From: an uncultured virus (IMG/VR IMGVR_UViG_3300021255_003627)
Lineage: Duplodnaviria > Heunggongvirae > Uroviricota > Caudoviricetes
DNA length: 20,000 bases
Strand: one strand, 5' to 3'
IMG/VR virus record: IMGVR_UViG_3300021255_003627
The number at the start of each line of letters is the position of its first letter. Positions within the stretch are counted from its first letter, which is position 1. Below, piece by piece: positions 2,821 to 19,313 of this stretch. Made by a program: the position numbers and the translations under genes. The notes below the pieces were generated by a model. The model did no database searches and was not told the DNA's origin. It saw nothing but the letters and a program-made list of their open reading frames with translations.

Positions 2821-3728
2821 GAAACGATTGCCACCGTGTGAGTTAATAGCTCACAGTAGTTAAATTCGTCCAAATCGGTGGAGCCTGTGACGGTAATACC
2901 GAGGGAAGTGCTCTGACAATAGTCAACACCCCGTAACGAGCGGAGGGACTTGAAATGTCGTTTTAAATAGGCATAAGGTGCGCTCTGAACTATAGAGAAA
3001 AAGAATCTATAGAGAATGTCAGAAATGAGCATTCCAATTAATATTGAAAATGACCACTTCTTCATTATTATTTATAATATATAAGTAATAATATGTTGAA
3101 TAAAGACAAGAGTTATATTTTTGGTATTTTAATAACAGATGGTAGTTTATATTTAACCACTAGAAATAGGGGGAAAGTAACATTAGAAATCTCTAAAAAA
3201 GACGAAGATTTAGTTGATAAATTAATCAAATTAGTTCCGTTTTCGACTAAAAGTACTAGAACTAGAAAAACTAATTTTTGCGCAAGTGGTACTGACTTTG
3301 TTTCTTTTAAAAATTATAGGAGAGAATTTAGAGAAAATCTAATTGAGAATGGCTTCCCAACAAAAAATAAAGCAATAAACGCATCAACTCCTTCTGAAGA
3401 ATATGATGAAGTTTCTTTTTGGAGAGGCGTTATTGATGGGGATGGAAGTATAGGCGTGACTAATAAAAACGAGCCATTTGTTTCTCTAGTTACAAAAAGT
3501 GAAAATCTTAAAAATAAATACTTAGAATTTTTACACAAAAATTTTGGAATAGCCAAAAATGTAAACAAGAACAAAAGAGACAATGTATACAATATTGTTG
3601 TAAAAAATAAAAACGCTAGAGACTTAGTTGATTTACTATACAACAATAAAGAAATACATCTTAATCGTAAATATGATAAAGCAATGTTTATCCTTGAAAA
3701 TTTTCAATATTAATTAGTAACAAATTTG
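2821..3728 (+). ncRNA. Group I self-splicing intron in rtcB (908 nt)
   Basis: Exon ends in U and intron ends in G. P1 CGGTGGT(2814-2820)/GCCACCG(2830-2836) with U.G at the splice site. P10 GATT/AATC. P4 TCGGTG/TACCGA. P7 ACGAGCG(2936-2942)/CGCTCT(2981-2986). Removal restores in-frame GGGNHY. Confidence 0.93.
3093..3713 (+). CDS. Intron-encoded two-motif LAGLIDADG homing endonuclease
   Basis: YIFGILITDGS and FWRGVIDGDGS motifs, C-terminal LYxxxxxxLxRK; lies in the 3' (P9) region of the intron; AT-rich. Confidence 0.93.
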   Translation: MLNKDKSYIFGILITDGSLYLTTRNRGKVTLEISKKDEDLVDKLIKLVPFSTKSTRTRKTNFCASGTDFVSFKNYRREFRENLIENGFPTKNKAINASTPSEEYDEVSFWRGVIDGDGSIGVTNKNEPFVSLVTKSENLKNKYLEFLHKNFGIAKNVNKNKRDNVYNIVVKNKNARDLVDLLYNNKEIHLNRKYDKAMFILENFQY

Positions 3729-4517
3729 AATCATTACGTTGAATATGATGTAAACGAAGAGTTAGGAAAATATTGTATTTGTGTGCATTGTGGTTCTAGA
3801 AACTTGGGTCAAAAGGTCTTTAAGTATTGGGATAAGATTGCAAAAACCATGTGCATTTCAAAGGATGAAATGAGGGCAATTACTGATGGGGTGAAGGCGA
3901 CAGTGAAAGATAAGACCATCCTTTCGAAAGCAATAAAGGAAGCAAGGGAGGAATATCTTAAGGGTAGGATACCAAACTTCTTAAATGGGGAAAACATGTA
4001 CAAGTACTTGATGGATGTGGCAGTTGCCCAAACATATGCAAGAATTAATCACGAGACGATTCAAGAACAAATATCAGAAATTTATATGTTTTTGTCGAAG
4101 GGTGCAAAGGTTGTAGATAAAATCTACACCACCCACAATTATGTTGACTTAGGTGATATGGTTCTGAGAAAAGGCGCAGTTCGTTCATATATCGGAGAGA
4201 GGCTGATTATTCCTTTTAACATGCGAGATGGTATAGGAATATTTGAGGGAAAATCAAATGAGGATTGGAACTGTACAGCCCCGCATGGATGTGGAAGGCT
4301 TTACAGCAGAAGTAAGGCAAAAGAGCAGCTTAGCGTGGAAAACTTTAAGACAGAAATGGCTGCGGCTGGAATATACACAACCACAGCAGATGCCTCCACT
4401 TTGGATGAGGCACCTCAAGCCTACAAGTCTTATGAAGAGATTTTGGAGTTGATTGAGCCTACAGTTAATGTGCTCTATCTGATGAAACCAAAAATCAATA
4501 TCAAGGCATCGGAATAG
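3729..4517 (+). CDS. rtcB: RtcB exon 2 (spliced product about 441 aa)
   Basis: NHYVE, VHCGSRNLG, THNY, LRKGA, IIPFNM, TAPHGCGR, DEAPQAYK and C-terminal NIKA motifs. Confidence 0.95.
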   Translation, partial: NHYVEYDVNEELGKYCICVHCGSRNLGQKVFKYWDKIAKTMCISKDEMRAITDGVKATVKDKTILSKAIKEAREEYLKGRIPNFLNGENMYKYLMDVAVAQTYARINHETIQEQISEIYMFLSKGAKVVDKIYTTHNYVDLGDMVLRKGAVRSYIGERLIIPFNMRDGIGIFEGKSNEDWNCTAPHGCGRLYSRSKAKEQLSVENFKTEMAAAGIYTTTADASTLDEAPQAYKSYEEILELIEPTVNVLYLMKPKINIKASE

Positions 4518-7238: not shown

Positions 7239-8300
7239 ATGATGACTTCAGAATTGGCACCTCCGCGTGGTGTTAAATATATGACCTTCACACCTCCAAG
7301 GAGAGCGAGGGTGTATTTAGCCGACAGTCAAATCGAATTGGTTGACCACACTAATATGGGGGTGGTAAATGAAGATGTAGATGGCACCGTCATGTTTAAG
7401 GTTGGCGACTATTATACCCTATCTAATGTTGCTTGTGATGGGTTTGAGGGTAAGACTAAAACATATGAGTTGGTCGCAATTGTCGACAAGTTTTACGACG
7501 TCGACATTGACTCAGTCGTGGTAAAACAAGTTGACGGGGATAAAGGAACTGTTTTCACACTATCGAAAAACGATTGTAATTTCCTTGGCATAGATTATGA
7601 AAAGGGCTTACAGATGTTCCCCATATCGTTAAACTGGAAACACGTAGAAAGGACTGTAATTCCGTTTGACAAAAACAATTTGGGGAGCGTTCCGTTGAGT
7701 AAAGTCGATGGTACGGTAAGACACATCCTTATTAAGTTAAAAGGTTTCAAGTGGTTTCACGACCATGTCTACATGCTTACGCCAGAAGGGTCAATTGTTT
7801 TGGAAACCGATTTTGTAACGTCACTAAGTGTGTCACTCAAAAAACCACTTGTTTGTGCCAATGGTTGTTATGCGCAAAGTTTGTCCTTAAACAAGGGCAC
7901 TTTGATTAGGCACCGAATAGTTATGCCTAATGGAATAACATTCCCAAGGGGTGGAATGATTTCCACGGAGAATGAAATTTTCATTTTACTTGAATTAAAG
8001 TCCTCCTCGGATGACTTTTTTTTGGGGGTACAGCGACAACATCTTGACGGAATTAAGGTGAGCGATATGTTTTCAGTTTCTTGGGAGTATTCACCTAAAA
8101 GGGAGGAATATGTGAAGAAAATGGTTGTTGACGAGTTTCAAGCACAAAATGGAGCAAGAAACACGAAACTCCATGAAGAAATAGCCGATATATTACTATT
8201 AAGCAGAAGGATTCGCGCCCAAGCTGATAGTATATCAGATAGATTACGATTAGAGAAATCCTTGGCTCGTAGCATTCCATACTACTATTGGCATCTTTAA
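7239..8300 (+). CDS. Hypothetical protein
   Basis: Long ORF (~353 aa) with no recognised motif. Confidence 0.7.
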   Translation: MMTSELAPPRGVKYMTFTPPRRARVYLADSQIELVDHTNMGVVNEDVDGTVMFKVGDYYTLSNVACDGFEGKTKTYELVAIVDKFYDVDIDSVVVKQVDGDKGTVFTLSKNDCNFLGIDYEKGLQMFPISLNWKHVERTVIPFDKNNLGSVPLSKVDGTVRHILIKLKGFKWFHDHVYMLTPEGSIVLETDFVTSLSVSLKKPLVCANGCYAQSLSLNKGTLIRHRIVMPNGITFPRGGMISTENEIFILLELKSSSDDFFLGVQRQHLDGIKVSDMFSVSWEYSPKREEYVKKMVVDEFQAQNGARNTKLHEEIADILLLSRRIRAQADSISDRLRLEKSLARSIPYYYWHL

Positions 8301-8346
8301 ATGTAGAATTACGAGAAAACTTATAGCATTTTCAATTAAAAGTGAT

Positions 8347-8721
8347 ATGAAGATAGTTAACAGTCCTAGTTTTATTAATGGTATTAAAGTGGCCAAAGAC
8401 TATGGTGAAGTTATTGAGTCTTTAAAGAACAATGAACTAGTAATGCACTATGAATATGGGGACTCGCTCAGCCCACTCTTGAACAGCGGTGAATATGCGC
8501 TTATTAAGCCTTGCAAGCCAATTGAAGTGAAACGAGGTGATTGTGTATTTTGCGAGGTACAAGGGGTTTTGATGGTTCACCAAGTCTGGGAAATCTCCGA
8601 TGCTAGCCACACAAATGAACTGTGGTTCAAAATTGGAAGCAGTATGAATACCATATACGGGTGGACAAAAAAAATATACGGCATCGCAAAAGGAACCGAC
8701 GTCTATCAAGGACTTTCTTGA
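8347..8721 (+). CDS. S24/S26-family peptidase-like protein
   Basis: GDSLSPLLNSGE resembles G-x-S-M-x-P-x-L-x-x-G-D; KRGDCVF and VHQV (Ser-His type). Confidence 0.65.
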   Translation: MKIVNSPSFINGIKVAKDYGEVIESLKNNELVMHYEYGDSLSPLLNSGEYALIKPCKPIEVKRGDCVFCEVQGVLMVHQVWEISDASHTNELWFKIGSSMNTIYGWTKKIYGIAKGTDVYQGLS

Positions 8722-8749
8722 TATATATTTTCCGTCACAAAAGCCAAAG

Positions 8750-8807
8750 CAATGATATAGGGGTTTGACTACGTAATCGGTCGACCCCTATATCATTGTT
8801 TATATTT
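8750..8807 (+). terminator. Long stem-loop, probable terminator
   Basis: Perfect 14-bp inverted repeat CAATGATATAGGGG(8750-8763)/CCCCTATATCATTG(8785-8798) followed by a T-rich tail. Confidence 0.65.
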
Positions 8808-8833
8808 GTTTGGTAATGATATTTATTTTTGTT

Positions 8834-9040
8834 ATGAGAAAGAAAATTTATGTAGAGCCGTTTTGTGAAACCGTCCCAATGGGTGACGGAATTCGTATTT
8901 TACTCTCTTCAAACATTGGTGACGCTGGTAGTGCCAATTACGGCGGTGACGTTGGCGGTGATGAAGCAAAGGGTATTTTAGATGAACATGAGAAACTGTA
9001 TGTAACAGAAACTTCTTGGGACAATTATTCAGAGTGGTAA
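8834..9040 (+). CDS. Small peptide with YxxP leader, Gly-rich core and Trp/acidic tail
   Basis: MRKKIYVEPFCETV...ILLSS...GGDVGG...WDNYSEW; 14 nt upstream of the lipoprotein gene. Confidence 0.7.
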   Translation: MRKKIYVEPFCETVPMGDGIRILLSSNIGDAGSANYGGDVGGDEAKGILDEHEKLYVTETSWDNYSEW

Positions 9041-9054
9041 ATTCTTACAAAAAC

Positions 9055-11121
9055 ATGAACAAATATCTTTTTACTTTGTTGTTTTGTGTGGTGATGGTCG
9101 GTTGCGCTGAAAATGCTTCAGAACCATTTGTTCCAACACAAGACACTCTCGTGTGTTTTACTTCGACAGATGAAGAGAGCACTAGAACTGCAATGTACCC
9201 TAACGGTAGGTTTAAATGGGTCAACTCATCCGATGGTGATGTGACCATAACTGACCATATCTATGTCATTAAAGATGATGGGGACACTGTTAAATCGAAA
9301 ACCATGGAGATAATCAATGATGATGAAACGAAGGCAAAGTTCTACTTATCTGGAACCTTTAACAAACCTCTGTACGATATTATCTATAATGGTTCAACGA
9401 TTAACGATGAGGAAAAAAACTGTGTTGGCTTGGTCACAGTAAAAGACGAACAAGTACAGTTCTATCCAAACAACTCAACGCACCTTGGACTTAACGGAGA
9501 CTGTGCAATTGCAAAAGCAAGAAAAGACAACAACGGAGGTTACTCGTTCAAACTAGAACACCAAATGGCCTATCTTATGTTTGAGCCTAGAATGAACCTT
9601 AACAAAAAAGCAACTGTAAGGAAGATTAAGGTAATCGAGGAAAATGGCAAGAACTTGTGCGGCACATTAACCATAGATGCGAATGGGACAAGCAGCACCG
9701 TGTTATTCAATGGAAAAAGTGAGATAACTTTGTATTGCGGAAAGGATGTCAAGGCCGTTGATAACGGCGAAATGGATGCCAATGTAGCCACGCAAAACGG
9801 CTTTGCGGTTAATTATGATTTGCCATATGATGAAATCTATGGGGAACAAGAAAAGGAAGACAACCCTAGGGCTTTTATGGTCATTGTTCCAGGACAATAT
9901 AAATTAACCTTTGAATATGAGGTTGAATCATCTTCGTTCTACGAGCAACATGCCTCGCACAACACCGCTTTAACCGAGTGGCTACCAAGAAAGACTGGGT
10001 ACATTTCCAAGCAAGTTAGAAAGAATGTTGATGTCACATTCGAGAAAAACCAATACTATAGAATACGCCATAAACTATCCGACACTCAAATAGAAATTGA
10101 TAGCGACAAGATTTACAAATTTGAAGAATATTATATGTGGGGCGGCAAAAAGTGGTTCTGGAACGACGCAGAAACTTATCCGCTAAAATATGACGAGTAT
10201 CAATCTCAAGGTGCACCAACACAAGGAAGCAGTTCATGGTTCTTTGATGAACTTGAATATGGTGATGTGATGTTCGAACTCCACAGCGGCGGCGGCACAT
10301 ATGATTGGGGTAAAAGTGAGAATAGGGTAATGGGTAAATGGTATAGACACAAACTAGCGAACAACAACCAATCTGAAGCGTGGTCTCCAACTAAAACGCT
10401 TACGGCCAACCAAATGAGTTATTATGTTATATACGGCGATGCCCATTACGATAATACGACACCTTGGAAACTATTGAAATATGGTGGCTATAATGGTCAT
10501 GGTGGGAACGACACCTTGTTAGTGTGCTACGGTGGAGTATGGTTTAAGAAGAAAGCCAAGATTGAATCTGAAGGGCACTCATTCCCTAACGAAAAAGAAT
10601 GGGAAATAAATAACAACCCAAACCAAGTAGCGGCTCCGTTTATACATGACGAATCGGCTGGACAAGCCAAGCAGCCATTTGAAGGCGTTAGATACAACTT
10701 AAGGTACTGTGCACCTTGGACAAACTACAGATATACTTATACCAACTACGACGATTTCAAAAGCACTAATGTATGGAAGAAACCATGGGAACTTGATGAA
10801 AGCAAGGACTCGACTGACTATTTCTTCGTCCCATGTCTAGGGCAAATTATGTACAATTCCCAAAAGACACCGAATGTCCCGACATTCACGTTGGTTGGCG
10901 CACAAGGCTTTTATTGGACGAAAACACCACTTATGTATAACATAGGTGCAACATCGTTTTTCTATTACCCAAATAGTTTAACATACGATTATTCTAAGGT
11001 AGAGAACGATAATGCGTTCTACCTTAATATCCATTATAACTATGTGGCGTTGAGTTGGCAGCAAAGCGGTGTTCATGTCAAGAACGGAATGCGTATAGCA
11101 AACACAAGTATGTTTAAATAG
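9055..11121 (+). CDS. Fimbrillin/type V pilin-like lipoprotein
   Basis: Lipoprotein signal MNKYLFTLLFCVVMVG-C, STR/T propeptide-like site, W...D.I.V, F.LEHQMAYL.F and L.G motifs as in Bacteroidales fimbrillin-family proteins; aromatic-rich C-terminal domain with GFYWT. Confidence 0.72.
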   Translation: MNKYLFTLLFCVVMVGCAENASEPFVPTQDTLVCFTSTDEESTRTAMYPNGRFKWVNSSDGDVTITDHIYVIKDDGDTVKSKTMEIINDDETKAKFYLSGTFNKPLYDIIYNGSTINDEEKNCVGLVTVKDEQVQFYPNNSTHLGLNGDCAIAKARKDNNGGYSFKLEHQMAYLMFEPRMNLNKKATVRKIKVIEENGKNLCGTLTIDANGTSSTVLFNGKSEITLYCGKDVKAVDNGEMDANVATQNGFAVNYDLPYDEIYGEQEKEDNPRAFMVIVPGQYKLTFEYEVESSSFYEQHASHNTALTEWLPRKTGYISKQVRKNVDVTFEKNQYYRIRHKLSDTQIEIDSDKIYKFEEYYMWGGKKWFWNDAETYPLKYDEYQSQGAPTQGSSSWFFDELEYGDVMFELHSGGGTYDWGKSENRVMGKWYRHKLANNNQSEAWSPTKTLTANQMSYYVIYGDAHYDNTTPWKLLKYGGYNGHGGNDTLLVCYGGVWFKKKAKIESEGHSFPNEKEWEINNNPNQVAAPFIHDESAGQAKQPFEGVRYNLRYCAPWTNYRYTYTNYDDFKSTNVWKKPWELDESKDSTDYFFVPCLGQIMYNSQKTPNVPTFTLVGAQGFYWTKTPLMYNIGATSFFYYPNSLTYDYSKVENDNAFYLNIHYNYVALSWQQSGVHVKNGMRIANTSMFK

Positions 11122-11142
11122 TAAAGACATATGAGTGACGAT

Positions 11143-11176
11143 AAACCACCACCCAACCAAGGTAGGTGGTTTTTTT
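11143..11176 (+). terminator. Rho-independent terminator
   Basis: AAACCACC/GGTGGTTT stem followed by a T run. Confidence 0.7.
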
Positions 11177-11205
11177 ATGAAAATATGTTAAAAGTTGCAC
11201 GATAT

Positions 11206-11237
11206 TTTGGTTATTTGAAAAATTTTCCATATCTTTG
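11206..11237 (+). promoter_or_regulatory. Bacteroidetes sigma-A type promoter driving the RNA island
   Basis: TTTG(11206-11209)-N20-TATCTTTG(11230-11237). Confidence 0.75.
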
Positions 11238-11246
11238 CAATACATA

Positions 11247-11460
11247 AAGAGTGGACGTTTAGAGAAACGAGAATGAGCTTACTATTCCCTGAAGTCATGT
11301 CTAAGACATTCAAAGTAAGTAAGCCTTATAGGGAAGGCAAGTATTCTGAAACGCAGTATTGTGAGCGCGTCGGTTGTTTGTGGCGCGGTGGTAGCAAAAA
11401 CGTGAGACGTTGACAAACACCCAATGTACCTTGTTCGGTTTAAACTACCTTCCCACTCTT
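11247..11460 (+). ncRNA. Candidate structured ncRNA of unknown class
   Basis: Starts ~9 nt after the promoter; closing stem AAGAGTGG/CCACTCTT; several nested internal helices; no credible ORF. Confidence 0.5.
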
Positions 11461-11497
11461 GTTTTAGGGTATCATCAGTAGTAAATGATTTAATCAC

Positions 11498-12088
11498 GCA
11501 ATAGTGGTGGAATTAGGTAGACACGAGGGACTTAATGAAAATTTGAGTGCATAGGCGAGAAATCCCTATGTAGAATCTCCTAAATTCGGTGGAAATCCTT
11601 TCCTCAACCTCCCAATACGAAATCTGTTATAGGGACACCGTGGGAACAGAACACTAACAAATAATGTGTAAGGACTATACCGAGCGAAAATGAGAAACAT
11701 TAGTACAGATAGTTCAAATGGAAATAGAACGCTCATAATCGTGTAGAGACTGAACGGGAGATACCTAAGTTGAAATTTATATAAACGAAGGAAGTGCCGA
11801 GTTAAGAACTTTGTTTATGTATCTTGCAAGAATTTCAATATGGTACTGAGACAGCCCAGACCACAACAAACAAAGTATTTACACTGGTCAACGATTCTAA
11901 GGTACAGAGGGGTGTAAATAGCAAATCATAAAATCTCAGAAGGCTTCTGAAATAGCGTAAGATGCGTAAAGTGCTGACCCAAGAGCAGTCGTAACGGTTT
12001 TATGAGCTTTGTTTGGCTATGGTAACATAGAGTGGCAGGAAAATCCCTTGGCTATAAAGCCGTATGAGTTCGAGTCTCATCTATTGTA
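11498..12088 (+). tRNA. trnL: tRNA-Leu(UAA), exons 11498-11533 and 12040-12088, interrupted by a group I intron
   Basis: Acceptor GCAATAG/CTATTGT+A; D-arm GTGGAATTAGGTAGACAC; after splicing AGGGA-CTTAAAA-TCCCT; long variable arm GGCT..AGCC; T-arm ATGAG-TTCGAGT-CTCAT; CCA not encoded. Confidence 0.93.
11534..12039 (+). ncRNA. Group I intron (506 nt, no ORF) in the tRNA-Leu anticodon
   Basis: Inserted after U34 and ends in G. P1 ACTT/GAGT(11545-11548) with U.G. P3 TCTCCT/GGGAGA. P4 TTCGGTG/TACCGAG. P7 GAGACTG(11746-11752)/CAGCCC(11852-11857). Confidence 0.9.
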
Positions 12089-12192
12089 CATGTAATCTAT
12101 AAGCGAAACAAAATTACATATTGTGGAAACCAACAGCAATTATCTTTAACGTTTTTATAGTATGGGTTAGAAAAAGAAGGTTTCCTTTTTAC

Positions 12193-12264
12193 GGTTTTGT
12201 TAGTTCAAAAGAAGAACGTGAGATTGTGGCTCTCAAGACGGTGGAGCGTTACCACCACAAAACC
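12193..12264 (+). tRNA. trnH: tRNA-His(GUG) with non-canonical D and T loops
   Basis: G-1:C73; acceptor GTTTTGT/ACAAAAC; D-arm GTTC-AAAAGAA-GAAC; anticodon arm TGAGA-TTGTGGC-TCTCA; T-arm GGTGG-AGCGTTA-CCACC; all four stems fully paired. Confidence 0.85.
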
Positions 12265-12323
12265 CTATGATGATTAACTTTGGTATATAATTACCTTGAT
12301 TTTGAAAATAATAGATGTCAAAA

Positions 12324-12355
12324 TTTGCTTTATTGAAAAAATTTTTATATCTTTG
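12324..12355 (+). promoter_or_regulatory. Bacteroidetes sigma-A type promoter
   Basis: TTTG(12324-12327)-N20-TATCTTTG(12348-12355). Confidence 0.75.
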
Positions 12356-12363
12356 CACTGTTT

Positions 12364-12606
12364 ATGGAATTGAAATATATTAGAGGCTGCGTCCATGACA
12401 ATATATTAGTGGATGGGGTACAAGAGATGAATATTAGTGATGAGGAAAGGAAAATTGTTTTAGAGAAAATAGCCAAATCTTTGAAACCAAGTGACCTAAA
12501 CATCCTCTTGCAAGAGATAATCCCGATATTTGGGGAGTTAGAGTCGAGTGATGGCCCTTGTGAAAGTTGCGGTGACTATGTTGATACATATGTGCTGCAA
12601 GTATGA
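12364..12606 (+). CDS. Small Cys-containing hypothetical protein
   Basis: 80 aa; GCVHD and PCESCGD suggest metal binding. Confidence 0.7.
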   Translation: MELKYIRGCVHDNILVDGVQEMNISDEERKIVLEKIAKSLKPSDLNILLQEIIPIFGELESSDGPCESCGDYVDTYVLQV

Positions 12607-13849: not shown

Positions 13850-14617
13850 ATGGCAGCGATAGATAAAATTTATTTGAATGGGTCTTATAATGATTATAAA
13901 GAATTTGTTGATTGGTGTAATAAGCAACCTCTTCTTTATGATAAGTATAATAAACCTTGTAGGATTTCTTCTTATGCTTATAAGCATGCTAAAGAAGATT
14001 GGCAACCTGGAAGAGTTGTATTTATGGGCCCATATTATGTAGATGCCTATCTTATACGAAACTGCCCTATTGAAGCTGTCCAAGAAGAACTAATGCTTAA
14101 CTATGGACATTGGTCACAGAGAAAGATTAACGATGCCTACGAGATAGTTTCCAATCGTACCGAGGAAAACAAGGAATACTTTACATGGCTTACCATTGAT
14201 GACTTCAAAATTGTGGATGGTGTAATTACAATGCCAAATCTTGAGAAATCAGATTATCAAAGAATAAAAGATGGAGAAATGTATGTTTCTCCAAAAAGAG
14301 AAGTCTATGAATATGGAAAACATTTTAGATGTACTAAACATCCGAAATATAAGTACAATACTCCTTTTGCATCTAAATGTTGGCACATAGATATTGAAAT
14401 CCCAAATCACGATTATATGTGGTACCATAAAAACCATAATTCTTGGGATTTTTATGATGAGTTTGTAATCAGTGATTGGTCTTCAAACACAGCCTTTTGC
14501 AAGTCTATTAAGGCTCTTAAGAGATTAATGTTAAAGTGGAAACTTCCAATAGGCACCGTTGTTAGAGCAAGAGGACGTTATATATTTGATGATTATGAAT
14601 TTGTAATTACTAAATAA
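13850..14617 (+). CDS. Hypothetical phage protein
   Basis: 255 aa aromatic-rich ORF following a promoter. Confidence 0.75.
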   Translation: MAAIDKIYLNGSYNDYKEFVDWCNKQPLLYDKYNKPCRISSYAYKHAKEDWQPGRVVFMGPYYVDAYLIRNCPIEAVQEELMLNYGHWSQRKINDAYEIVSNRTEENKEYFTWLTIDDFKIVDGVITMPNLEKSDYQRIKDGEMYVSPKREVYEYGKHFRCTKHPKYKYNTPFASKCWHIDIEIPNHDYMWYHKNHNSWDFYDEFVISDWSSNTAFCKSIKALKRLMLKWKLPIGTVVRARGRYIFDDYEFVITK

Positions 14618-16850: not shown

Positions 16851-17420
16851 ATGAATTTTAACACAAAAGAATACGAAGGTTCAATACTTAAACGTATTGA
16901 CGCCTCTATGAACGAGACGATGGAGAGTCTTTCCAAGTGTGCAAAAACTATTAGCGAGGAAGGGGATAAAACAATAGAAATTCTCATTGAAGAGTCTAGT
17001 CTTAAAGTAGTCCTTGGTGCGCTTAAACTGATTAAGTCAGAACTTATAAGGGCATCCAATATCAACCACAACACAAACAAAGATTACCTTAACACTAACG
17101 TCGAGGAAGTTAAGGTTATGCTTAAACTCGCTAGCGACCATAAAGAAGCGATGGAAGCCTACAAAAAGGCGAACAACGAAGAATTATACGGGAAGGAGGA
17201 GGCAGAACTTGAGGTTATTGAGGCTTTTACCCCAAAGCAGCCGACAAATGAGGAAATTATAGCATTCACCAAAGAAGTCATCGATGAGTACCTATCAACA
17301 AAGGAGGACGGCTACACCCTAACAATTAGGGATATGGGTCAAATTGTCCCGAAGGTAAAGGAAAAATACCCTAACGTCGACGGAAACTTGATTAAAAACA
17401 CTTTAATTGGGAAAAGTTAG
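16851..17420 (+). CDS. yqeY: GatB/YqeY-domain protein
   Basis: LKLIKSEL, EAYKKANNEELYGKEEAELEVIEAFTPKQ and DMGQIV match the YqeY pattern; extra N-terminal segment. Confidence 0.8.
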   Translation: MNFNTKEYEGSILKRIDASMNETMESLSKCAKTISEEGDKTIEILIEESSLKVVLGALKLIKSELIRASNINHNTNKDYLNTNVEEVKVMLKLASDHKEAMEAYKKANNEELYGKEEAELEVIEAFTPKQPTNEEIIAFTKEVIDEYLSTKEDGYTLTIRDMGQIVPKVKEKYPNVDGNLIKNTLIGKS

Positions 17421-18653: not shown

Positions 18654-18797
18654 ATGACAATTAATGTTGATAATGGCAAAATTGATAAAGAGTGTGAATT
18701 AAATCGTGTCTATAGTTGCTGTGGTTGCGAACATTATTATGATGAAAGTGATACTGTATGTAAACGTGGTTGTCCACATTATTTTTACTGTATGTAA
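18654..18797 (+). CDS. Small Cys-rich protein (47 aa, not in ORF track)
   Basis: MTINVDNGKIDKECELNRVYSCCGCEHYYDESDTVCKRGCPHYFYCM; 3' end altered by a duplication. Confidence 0.55.
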   Translation: MTINVDNGKIDKECELNRVYSCCGCEHYYDESDTVCKRGCPHYFYCM

Positions 18798-18819
18798 ACG
18801 TGGTTGTACACATTATTTT
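18752..18819 (+). repeat. Tandem duplication, 2 x 34 bp
   Basis: TACTGTATGTAAACGTGGTTGT(C/A)CACATTATTTT at 18752-18785 and 18786-18819, one mismatch. Confidence 0.95.
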
Positions 18820-18827
18820 GGAAAATT

Positions 18828-19313
18828 ATGACACAAGAAGAAAAATCATTGCTACTTCAAGACCTTTGCGGAAGGTTGCCTTATGGGGTAATTGTTAGAC
18901 ACGCCGACCCACTTATTGACAATGATGGCAATGAGACTGGTGAGTTTTGGCATAAAAGGGGATACTTATGTGACGTTACTACATTGGATGATATGACCAC
19001 TACAATAATTGAAAGTGAAGGCAGTGATGAAGAGGGATATGAACATATATGTTTTTTGGAAAGGACTCTGCCATATCTCAGACCAATGTCTTCTATGACA
19101 GAAGAAGAAAAGAAAGAGTTATTGCAAATATCAAATTTTATCTCTGATATTGATGATGATTTTATATATCTTATTGAAAGAGCTTTAATTGATATAGTTG
19201 ACATTGTAAATTTTATCAATTGGCTCAATGCTCATCATTTTGATTATCGCAATCTTATAGAGCGTGGCTTAGCCATTGAAGTAACAGAAGAAAATAACCC
19301 ATATAAAGAATAA
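18828..19313 (+). CDS. Hypothetical phage protein, YLRPMSSMTEEE family, copy 2
   Basis: Shares GRLxYGVIV, PYLRPMSSMTEEE and NAHHFDYRxLIExGLA with 17629-18141. Confidence 0.8.
   Translation: MTQEEKSLLLQDLCGRLPYGVIVRHADPLIDNDGNETGEFWHKRGYLCDVTTLDDMTTTIIESEGSDEEGYEHICFLERTLPYLRPMSSMTEEEKKELLQISNFISDIDDDFIYLIERALIDIVDIVNFINWLNAHHFDYRNLIERGLAIEVTEENNPYKE

Follow-up and report, generated by a model that had tools for sequence, protein, structure and literature searches.

What kind of element lies between a promoter and a tRNA-Leu gene in IMG/VR record IMGVR_UViG_3300021255_003627, an uncultured virus of the Caudoviricetes? In the 20,000-nt stretch of this record that was analysed here (hereafter, the window), a preliminary description had placed an unidentified structured RNA of about 215 nt at 11247-11460, at the head of the tRNA transcript. 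We consider it almost certain that about 11272-11465 on the plus strand is the gene of a real structured non-coding RNA (ncRNA) of a new family, because homologues share a covarying fold; thermodynamics alone would not have carried this finding. The carriers form a clade of very large uncultivated gut phages, in which the RNA is a single-copy gene within the tRNA gene region. The earlier observation was confirmed in part, with every helix string that it named present where it had been placed, and its interpretation as a structured phage ncRNA is supported.

Homologues and a covarying fold

The homologues were reached through the TelA protein encoded upstream, whose relatives led to nine viral contigs in which nhmmer then located the element. 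By blastn, the stretch 11230-11480 had no match at E ≤ 1 among 50,697 phage records, and a wider query matched only over the start of the tRNA-Leu and its intron, in two records of one 735-kb phage whose locus has no leader RNA; among viral contigs, neither relatives of the neighbouring 701-aa and 351-aa proteins nor an exact 24-nt pattern was found. A degenerate pattern located seven loci among viral contigs and a further 27 among metagenome contigs, one of the latter (L033) being identical to the window, and the resulting homologue set comprised 25 distinct complete relatives plus the window. The covariance model R1, built from 13 of these, found 28 elements in the 31 sources searched and matched the window at 11273-11462 (47.5 bits, E = 1.3e-9); two further matches were regarded as spurious, one lying antisense over the 5' hairpin (P1, described below) and the adjacent tRNA and the other being a 12-bit fragment. 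Each of five phage records (171-413 kb, four of them complete at 295-413 kb) held exactly one R1 match, and in five phage records the P1 internal-loop module occurred only in the element itself and in one unrelated string. In 185,579 bacterial and archaeal species genomes, a strict pattern had no match and a loose one had 17, none of which was confirmed by the model at the pattern site.

Comparison of these sequences revealed the strong covariation among collected homologues that had been proposed as a check of the RNA. In a model-fitted alignment of all 30 rows, including two doubtful matches, 93.0% of cells were paired (34-49% when the partners were slid) and 25 of 42 pairs had changed on both sides (at most 7 when slid), and none of 500 shuffles reached any of five measures. 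A plain MAFFT alignment of 13 close relatives had 94.4% of cells paired (33-44% when slid), with both partners changed in 10 of 43 pairs (at most 2 when slid); here none of 500 shuffles equalled it on four measures, and 206 of 500 did so on 'further pair types'. The plus strand is supported by the many U-G pairs, since these would become C-A if the other strand were read; at column pair 10/64 of the model-fitted alignment, U-G stands in 19 rows. The comparison with shuffled sequence that had also been proposed gave no clear excess, the energy being unremarkable both for 11247-11460 (minimum free energy -57.3 kcal/mol, z = -1.67, 9 of 200 shuffles as good) and for the core 11272-11465 (z = -0.96, 36 of 200 shuffles as good).

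The covarying pairs outline two parts: a 5' hairpin, P1, whose internal loop hardly varies, and on its 3' side a multi-helix junction domain that a helix, P2, closes. In the window, P1 is built from a GCTTAC/GTAAGC base, a TAT/GTA step, an internal loop of TCCC against AA, a TGAA/TTCA stem and a variable tip. The helix first read as GCTTACT (11277-11283) with AGTAAGC (11318-11324) therefore stands, its GCTTAC/GTAAGC part being kept in relatives, yet invariant: the base there is GCUUAY/GUAAGC and the next step UAGU/ACUA (TAGT/ACTA in DNA letters), both without variation, and the base pairs are unchanged in 28-29 rows. The internal loop has the family form of three against one, CCC versus A, and the upper stem above it covaries (columns 20/52 and 22/50). 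The tip varies freely, four short variants having a GAAA or GUAA tetraloop there; it is to this variable position that the strings ATGTC (11297-11301) and GACAT (11305-11309), correctly located in the preliminary description, belong. A linker, CCUUGU, leads from P1 to P2.

All seven pairs of P2 have changed on both sides across the family (helix 5 of the model-fitted alignment), with GGAGAG/CUCUCC in relatives and GGGAAGG/CCUUCCC in the window, which bears out the pairing originally proposed between GGAAGG (11332-11337) and CCTTCC (11448-11453). P2 encloses about 110 nt that comprise a small hairpin, a long-range helix (P3) carrying hairpin 1, and hairpin 2. Changes on both sides affect seven of eight pairs in P3, three of three in the stem of hairpin 1 and two of five in the small hairpin, whose counterpart in relatives is GTCTT-TTT-GAGAC (helix 6, 95.7% paired). 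The predicted stem AACGT (11399-11403)/ACGTT (11407-11411) is present as a sub-hairpin within hairpin 2. On the 3' side, the single strand A(A/T)ACT(A/G)C is kept in 26 complete elements, a count to be read with the fact that the motif itself served as the end anchor for extraction. An apparently variable triplet before AAACTAC (CAG, TAG, TTG or ATG) does not track the anticodon of the upstream tRNA. Several further pairings were discarded by eye: CAAG with CTTG, GTAAG with a 3' CTTAC-like stretch and TTGAT with ATCAG are not kept across types, and the alternative earlier considered possible between TTCCCT (11285-11290) and AGGGAA (11330-11335), both present as strings, has counterparts in relatives (TAGTCCCT versus CGGAGAG) that are not complementary.

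The interior of the element exists in four recognisable versions, in every one of which the loop of hairpin 1 is complementary to that of hairpin 2. Ten representatives had ten different loop pairs (hairpin 1/hairpin 2), all complementary over 4-7 bp: GGUCG/CGACU, GGUUG/CAACU, GCUG/CAGC, GGUAG/CUACC, UACCC/GGGUA, UACCG/CGGUA, UGACUA/UAGUCA, UGUCUGA/UCAGACA, AACUAG/CUAGUU and, in the window, UGUUUGU/ACAAACA (7 bp, duplex energy -10.0 kcal/mol). The mean duplex energy was -6.83 kcal/mol for cognate and -2.37 kcal/mol for non-cognate combinations, and the cognate energy sum was reached by none of 20,000 permutations. The pairing of TGTTTGT (11375-11381) with ACAAACA (11413-11419) in the preliminary description was thus right, although not as a nested helix: because the strands are the loops of two hairpins, it is a loop-loop (kissing) contact.

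A few loci hold partial likenesses. In L003, a copy at 14123-14280 is without the 5' half of P1, apparently through a deletion between TAT repeats, and at 18788-18843 an isolated hairpin with the P1-type internal loop, TAGTCCCTGAAGGGATTCAAACTA, sits in a different helix (GAGGC/GCCTC), apparently inside an interrupted tRNA. The 735-kb phage LR756501 has a weak R1 match on the minus strand at 512645-512817 (L071 1501-1673; 18.3 bits, E = 0.06 for the record), with a closing helix, a T-run and a AAATGAGGGAT motif but no P1 motif, which is possibly a distant relative of the 3' domain. Near 190 kb of the same phage (L001 ~1784-1975), a tRNA-Leu that carries an intron precedes a stretch of about 190 nt that is closed by GGAAACCCTG/CAGGGTTTCC and a T-run; this stretch matched neither Rfam (E ≤ 1) nor R1 and is possibly another orphan RNA.

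Extent, RNA libraries and comparison with known RNAs

The conserved RNA measures about 190 nt (~11272-11465) instead of the roughly 215 nt first proposed, and its length across the family is about 170-194 nt (Table 1). The leader at 11247-11271 is absent from all 25 relatives, the window sharing it with the identical copy L033 alone; it lies upstream of 11272, where two RNA-library contigs begin, and its inclusion in the mature RNA is unsupported. Two structures of the preliminary description fall with it: the strings AAGAGTG (11247-11253) and CACTCTT (11454-11460), thought to pair the ends, and CGTTT (11256-11260) and AAACG (11265-11269), thought to form a hairpin, are all there, and each pairing is confined to the window and L033. 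At the 3' side, a T-run directly after P2 is shared by nearly all members.

Table 1. Coordinates of the RNA element, its parts and neighbours, the RNA-library contigs on it, and unusual tRNA genes of related loci
Feature	Position	Strand	Basis or remark
Promoter-like site: TTTG (11206-11209), 20-nt spacer, TATCTTTG (11230-11237)	11206-11237	+	pattern count
Window-specific 5' leader: AAGAGTG(G) strand and hairpin CGTTT-AGAG-AAACG	11247-11271	+	strings located
Conserved core, proposed mature RNA of ~194 nt	11272-11465	+	R1 match 11273-11462; X5 and X2 contigs
P1 hairpin	11277-11324	+	covariation alignments
P2 closing helix, 5' strand GGGAAGG	11331-11337	+	pairs with 11448-11454
Small hairpin after P2 5' strand, ATTCTG/CAGTAT (5 of 6 pairs)	11343-11359	+	by eye in the window
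Hairpin 1, CGCGTC/GGCGCG, 10-nt loop holding TGTTTGT (11375-11381)	11366-11387	+	stem and loop checked
Hairpin 2, GGTA/TACC enclosing AACGT/ACGTT (11399-11411) and ACAAACA (11413-11419)	11390-11430	+	
Single strand AAACTAC, then P2 3' strand CCTTCCC (11448-11454)	11442-11454	+	
Window-specific 3' strand of the outer helix, CACTCTT, with G and TTTT after it	11454-11465	+	X5 contig ends at 11465
tRNA-Leu(UAA) with 506-nt group I intron	11498-12089	+	ARAGORN with introns allowed
tRNA-His(GUG)	12194-12265	+	ARAGORN, Rfam
X1 contig	11298-11549		part of a 297-nt contig
X2 contig	11272-11511		whole 240-nt contig
X5 contig	11272-11465		194 of 196 nt of the contig
CUA-anticodon or odd tRNA, L041	258-332		
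CUA-anticodon or odd tRNA, L007	16340-16409		
CUA-anticodon or odd tRNA, L026	1932-2002		
CUA-anticodon or odd tRNA, L029	1971-2042		

Of 21 listed sequencing runs, 18 are described in their records as RNA libraries of gut samples, ruminant or other, and four runs were compared with the window. Contigs lay on the element with zero differences in three of the four (X1, X2 and X5, sheep-gut RNA libraries from three studies), while X8 had none. Those of X1 and X2 extend out of the RNA into the 5' exon of tRNA-Leu, and X1 also reaches the intron; the presence of the RNA in RNA libraries and its joining to that exon on one contig are thereby shown, or at least weakly shown. The X2 and X5 contigs, from different studies, both start at 11272, the 5' edge of the conserved core, and X5 ends in the T-run through which X1 and X2 read. 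These ends hint weakly at a mature RNA of about 194 nt, and the 11272 start weighs no more than that because contigs lack true-end information and DNA may be present in the libraries. The protein-coding flanks 10800-11183 and 12080-12271 had no contig cover in the four runs, which we did not count as evidence.

The RNA fits no known class. The Rfam check proposed for it leaves its novelty standing: against Rfam 15 (4227 models), the window gave only tRNA-His at gathering thresholds, and the region 11000-12500 gave nothing inside the element at E ≤ 10, two sub-threshold small RNA (sRNA) matches ending at 11248 and 11251; eight related loci searched at E ≤ 5 yielded only flanking tRNAs and chance matches. 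The earlier judgement that it is not a tRNA, transfer-messenger RNA (tmRNA), RNase P RNA or group I core was upheld. ARAGORN called only tRNA-Leu and tRNA-His, the Rfam tRNA clan is absent from the element, and the group I intron model RF00028 matched only at 11524-11801, inside tRNA-Leu. A Y RNA or YrlA partnered by Ro was likewise rejected, with no YrlA or Y_RNA match on the element and none of 20 window proteins matching TROVE, as were hammerhead, hepatitis delta virus (HDV)-like and RNase P-like readings, for which the conserved strands offer no consistent core by eye.

Nor does the element appear to encode a peptide. An ATG-initiated open reading frame (ORF) of 46 codons is present in the window at 11273-11413, but this reading is refuted because the relatives do not keep the frame: the position of the ATG is occupied by TGG, CGG or TAG in 16 of the 25, a stop follows after 0-36 codons in 24 of them, and substitutions track base pairing rather than codons. 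We give a 46-aa product a negligible chance.

We found no description of the RNA in the literature. The core motifs did not appear in the supplement text searched (files 1, 2 and 4 lie outside that search) of a catalogue of viral candidate RNAs, which lists motifs of 29-151 nt (PMC10690425); because the supplement was searched in part, a partial earlier listing there is possible. The closest likenesses are to other RNAs of phage tRNA regions. RNAC and RNAD of phage T4 are made from the tRNA region and are without assigned roles (PMC3014915). Like them, the element is a small non-tRNA RNA from a phage tRNA gene region, but it had no blastn similarity to any of the 50,697 phage records, and it comes from phages of another size and host clade. 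With ROOL (RF03087) and GOLLD (RF01998) it shares a phage origin, a place near tRNA islands (often so, according to 10.1101/2024.12.08.627333) and kissing loops; they differ in that neither model matches and in size, the element having about 190 nt against roughly 500-800 nt or more.

Theta ribozymes, minimal HDV-like RNAs that adjoin gut-phage tRNAs, resemble it in that the element can stand flush with a phage tRNA 3' end in phages of the mammalian gut. Its 5' edge lies beside a tRNA 3' end in 10 of 27 loci, and in the window a promoter and the 25-nt leader precede it instead. The differences are that no HDV-type model matches and that the topology is another one: the supported helices form a coaxial hairpin and a kissing-loop junction, not the nested double pseudoknot of HDV (P1, P1.1, P2, P3 and P4 in the nomenclature of that ribozyme), and by eye there is no room for an HDV-type P2 strand between P1 and the next helix. 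The element is also roughly three times larger than theta ribozymes. Junctions organised by a loop-loop contact of two neighbouring hairpins are known from the purine riboswitch aptamer and natural hammerheads. The way in which the present fold is held together, by a closing helix and two side-by-side hairpins with pairing loops, is of this type, whereas sequence and models do not match, helices P2a and P3 and a separate invariant 5' hairpin are additional, and the element is not placed as a cis-regulator would be.

Genomic setting and proposed mode of action

The proposal that the RNA heads the tRNA transcript fits the window phage, where a promoter-like site of the form TTTG-N20-TAnnTTTG lies ahead of it, in agreement with the promoter first noted there, and tRNA-Leu(UAA) follows 37 nt after 11460, as described. 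It does not hold generally, since the RNA lies downstream of a same-strand tRNA-Gln in 24 of 27 related loci. That tRNA ends 1-4 nt before the RNA in 10 of the 27, and in most other loci the two are separated by about 230-460 nt which, where read, end in a tRNA-like 3' part (by eye). In L014, L022 and L041, AAATGGGTA/TACCCATTT closes an insert of about 130 nt that stands between the preceding tRNA and the RNA and may be a further small structured element. The window runs from an RNA ligase gene through RtcB (interrupted by a LAGLIDADG endonuclease ORF), SSB, TelA and three unknown genes to the promoter, the RNA, tRNA-Leu, tRNA-His, a second promoter-like site and an OmpA-like gene. In L007, from a 412-kb phage, RtcB, SSB and TelA are followed by two unknown genes, a pair of tRNA-Glu genes, an endonuclease gene and tRNA-Gln; then come the RNA, a 145-aa ORF, six further tRNAs and the OmpA-like gene, so that RtcB, SSB, TelA, a tRNA region with the RNA and the OmpA-like gene are common to both. 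Far fewer tRNAs remain in the block of the window phage, and the RNA is retained behind a promoter; that tRNAs were lost while the RNA was kept and given a promoter argues that it matters in its own right.

The reading that we favour, with moderate confidence as a whole, is that of an uncatalogued phage ncRNA with a stable, compact fold that is released by tRNA processing and acts in trans. It would be transcribed together with the tRNAs, from its own promoter in the window phage and behind tRNA-Gln in relatives, and would be excised either by tRNA-precursor processing enzymes or by some other endonuclease. The kissing-loop domain may provide a rigid, nuclease-resistant body. The lower stem and internal loop of P1 are conserved beyond what pairing needs, which makes them the obvious candidate for a docking site of a protein or RNA partner. 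The preliminary description had named a decoy, a ribozyme or an RNA-repair partner as candidate roles. As for the task of the released RNA, its conserved place between RNA-repair genes (RNA ligase and RtcB) and tRNAs suggests, as a guess, a role in the phage's handling of tRNAs and translation or in countering host attack on them.

Several points weigh against this reading. No partner protein is conserved next to the RNA, and the T-run right after P2 is equally expected of a cis-acting 3' end element. The folding energy is no better than that of shuffled sequences at either extent. The 30-row alignment was fitted to the model, which favours structure, and the sequences are related, so that shuffle counts are not probabilities. 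The loops were delimited by hand and 10 of 26 elements were used, one per version, and their covariation fits pairing within one molecule and between molecules alike. The contigs show neither strand, true ends nor level, and RNA libraries may contain DNA.

An end-piece of the tRNA operon, a folded cap plus T-run which would act in cis by terminating transcription and/or protecting the tRNA precursor from 3' exonucleases and positioning processing enzymes, with no role in trans, would account for the place of the RNA as the last member of the tRNA block in relatives, 1-4 nt after tRNA-Gln in ten loci, for its ending in P2 and a T-run before a protein gene, and for the X5 contig that ends in that run. 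We nonetheless rate it as unlikely. The window RNA stands upstream of its tRNAs, with the X1 and X2 contigs crossing the T-run into tRNA-Leu, further tRNA-like genes follow the RNA in L026, L002 and L040, P2 with its enclosed ~110 nt is unlike the short hairpin of an intrinsic terminator, and an invariant internal loop together with a covarying kissing loop far exceeds what termination needs. A riboswitch or other cis-regulator of the downstream gene seems very improbable, as the downstream neighbour varies between a protein gene, an intron-bearing tRNA and, in the window, tRNA-Leu; what speaks for it is that the 145-aa ORF starts about 15-25 nt after the T-run in many relatives and that a junction with kissing hairpins resembles known aptamer architectures.

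The same loops might instead pair between molecules and build dimers or larger RNA-only assemblies by analogy with ROOL and GOLLD, an improbable reading in our view. The covarying loop pairs fit it as well as they fit an internal contact, and 10.1101/2024.12.08.627333 reports that the kissing loop of ROOL, first read as tertiary, was later shown to be quaternary, and that the phage RNAs ROOL and GOLLD often lie near tRNA islands. However, the two hairpins stand side by side on one junction with arms whose lengths look matched by eye (type A has a P3 of 9-10 bp, less a hairpin of 3 bp, opposite a hairpin 2 of 5-6 bp, and the window has 6 bp opposite 4 bp), which suits an intramolecular contact, and the RNA is 3-4 times smaller than ROOL and GOLLD. 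Quite improbable, too, is a self-cleaving ribozyme that would cut at its own 5' edge, freeing the 3' end of the upstream tRNA in relatives and shedding the leader in the window, as a larger analogue of theta. It would explain why 1-4 nt separate that edge from the 3' end of tRNA-Gln at 10 of the 27 loci, why two RNA-library contigs start at the core edge 11272 in the window, which has no tRNA upstream, and why RtcB and RNA ligase, enzymes that join ends of the kind left by ribozymes, are encoded nearby. Against it, no Rfam 15 ribozyme family matched at E ≤ 10 (window) or E ≤ 5 (related loci), the supported helices give neither an HDV-type nested double pseudoknot nor, by eye, a hammerhead core, and cutting after the tRNA by a host enzyme explains the position equally well, the 11272 start being a weak hint. 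The idea that the RNA is active in phage tRNA biology, whether as a new class of ribozyme that cleaves its own 5' edge or processes tRNA ends or as an RNA-only assembly formed through the covarying loops, is a tentative one that we think rather unlikely; if true, huge gut phages would carry an active RNA by which they make, protect or deliver their tRNAs without relying on the host.

For the trans-acting RNA that we favour, the family is new (outside Rfam 15) and the niche, small RNAs in phage tRNA regions, is a known one. Large tRNA sets and RNA-repair enzymes are part of the gene content of huge phages; since T4 RNAC and RNAD, the small non-tRNA RNAs of phage tRNA regions have stood without an assigned role. 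If the RNA acts on tRNAs or on host defences directed against them, an RNA component would be added to these gene sets. Being short (~190 nt), single-copy, syntenic and present in RNA libraries, with a fold that covariation defines unusually well and ten versions of its loop-loop contact, it offers a tractable case that is suited to structure determination, partner pull-down and cleavage assays. It is moderately interesting as it stands, and would be much more so if it proved catalytic, self-assembling or directed at tRNAs.

Neighbouring genes and promoter-like sites

The tRNA-Leu gene is missed by standard ARAGORN, and its intron scores 29 bits with RF00028, below the cut-off of 50. Contig depth over 11504-12079 was very high, with many contigs at 90-99% likeness, probably including introns of other organisms; intron contigs also showed back-joints from ~12035-12043 to ~11539-11545, which could be circular intron forms or arrangements of other organisms. 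The window RtcB lies in two ORFs, 2266-2841 (N-terminal part) and 3726-4517 (C-terminal part), with the LAGLIDADG ORF at 3093-3713 between them, and is intact in L007 (455 aa, 7548-8915); the split is probably due to an invasion of the intron or intein type. A YqeY/GatB-like protein (PHROG label 'tRNA amidotransferase') at 16851-17420 adds to the tRNA-related gene content.

In relatives, a tRNA with anticodon CUA (an amber suppressor, labelled Pyl by ARAGORN) and tRNA-like genes with a two-base 'anticodon' were seen, a hint that this phage clade recodes stop codons or has odd tRNAs. The TTTG-N20-TAnnTTTG pattern, which we take to be of the Bacteroidota type, occurs at two sites in the window (11206-11237 and 12324-12355; 0.24 expected). 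The wider consensus of TTTG, about 20 A/T-rich nucleotides and TATCTTTG (window 11186-11240 and 12324-12355) recurs in many copies in L002-L010, with flanks conserved over 35-55 nt in related phage loci, and is likely to represent a phage-specific promoter class.

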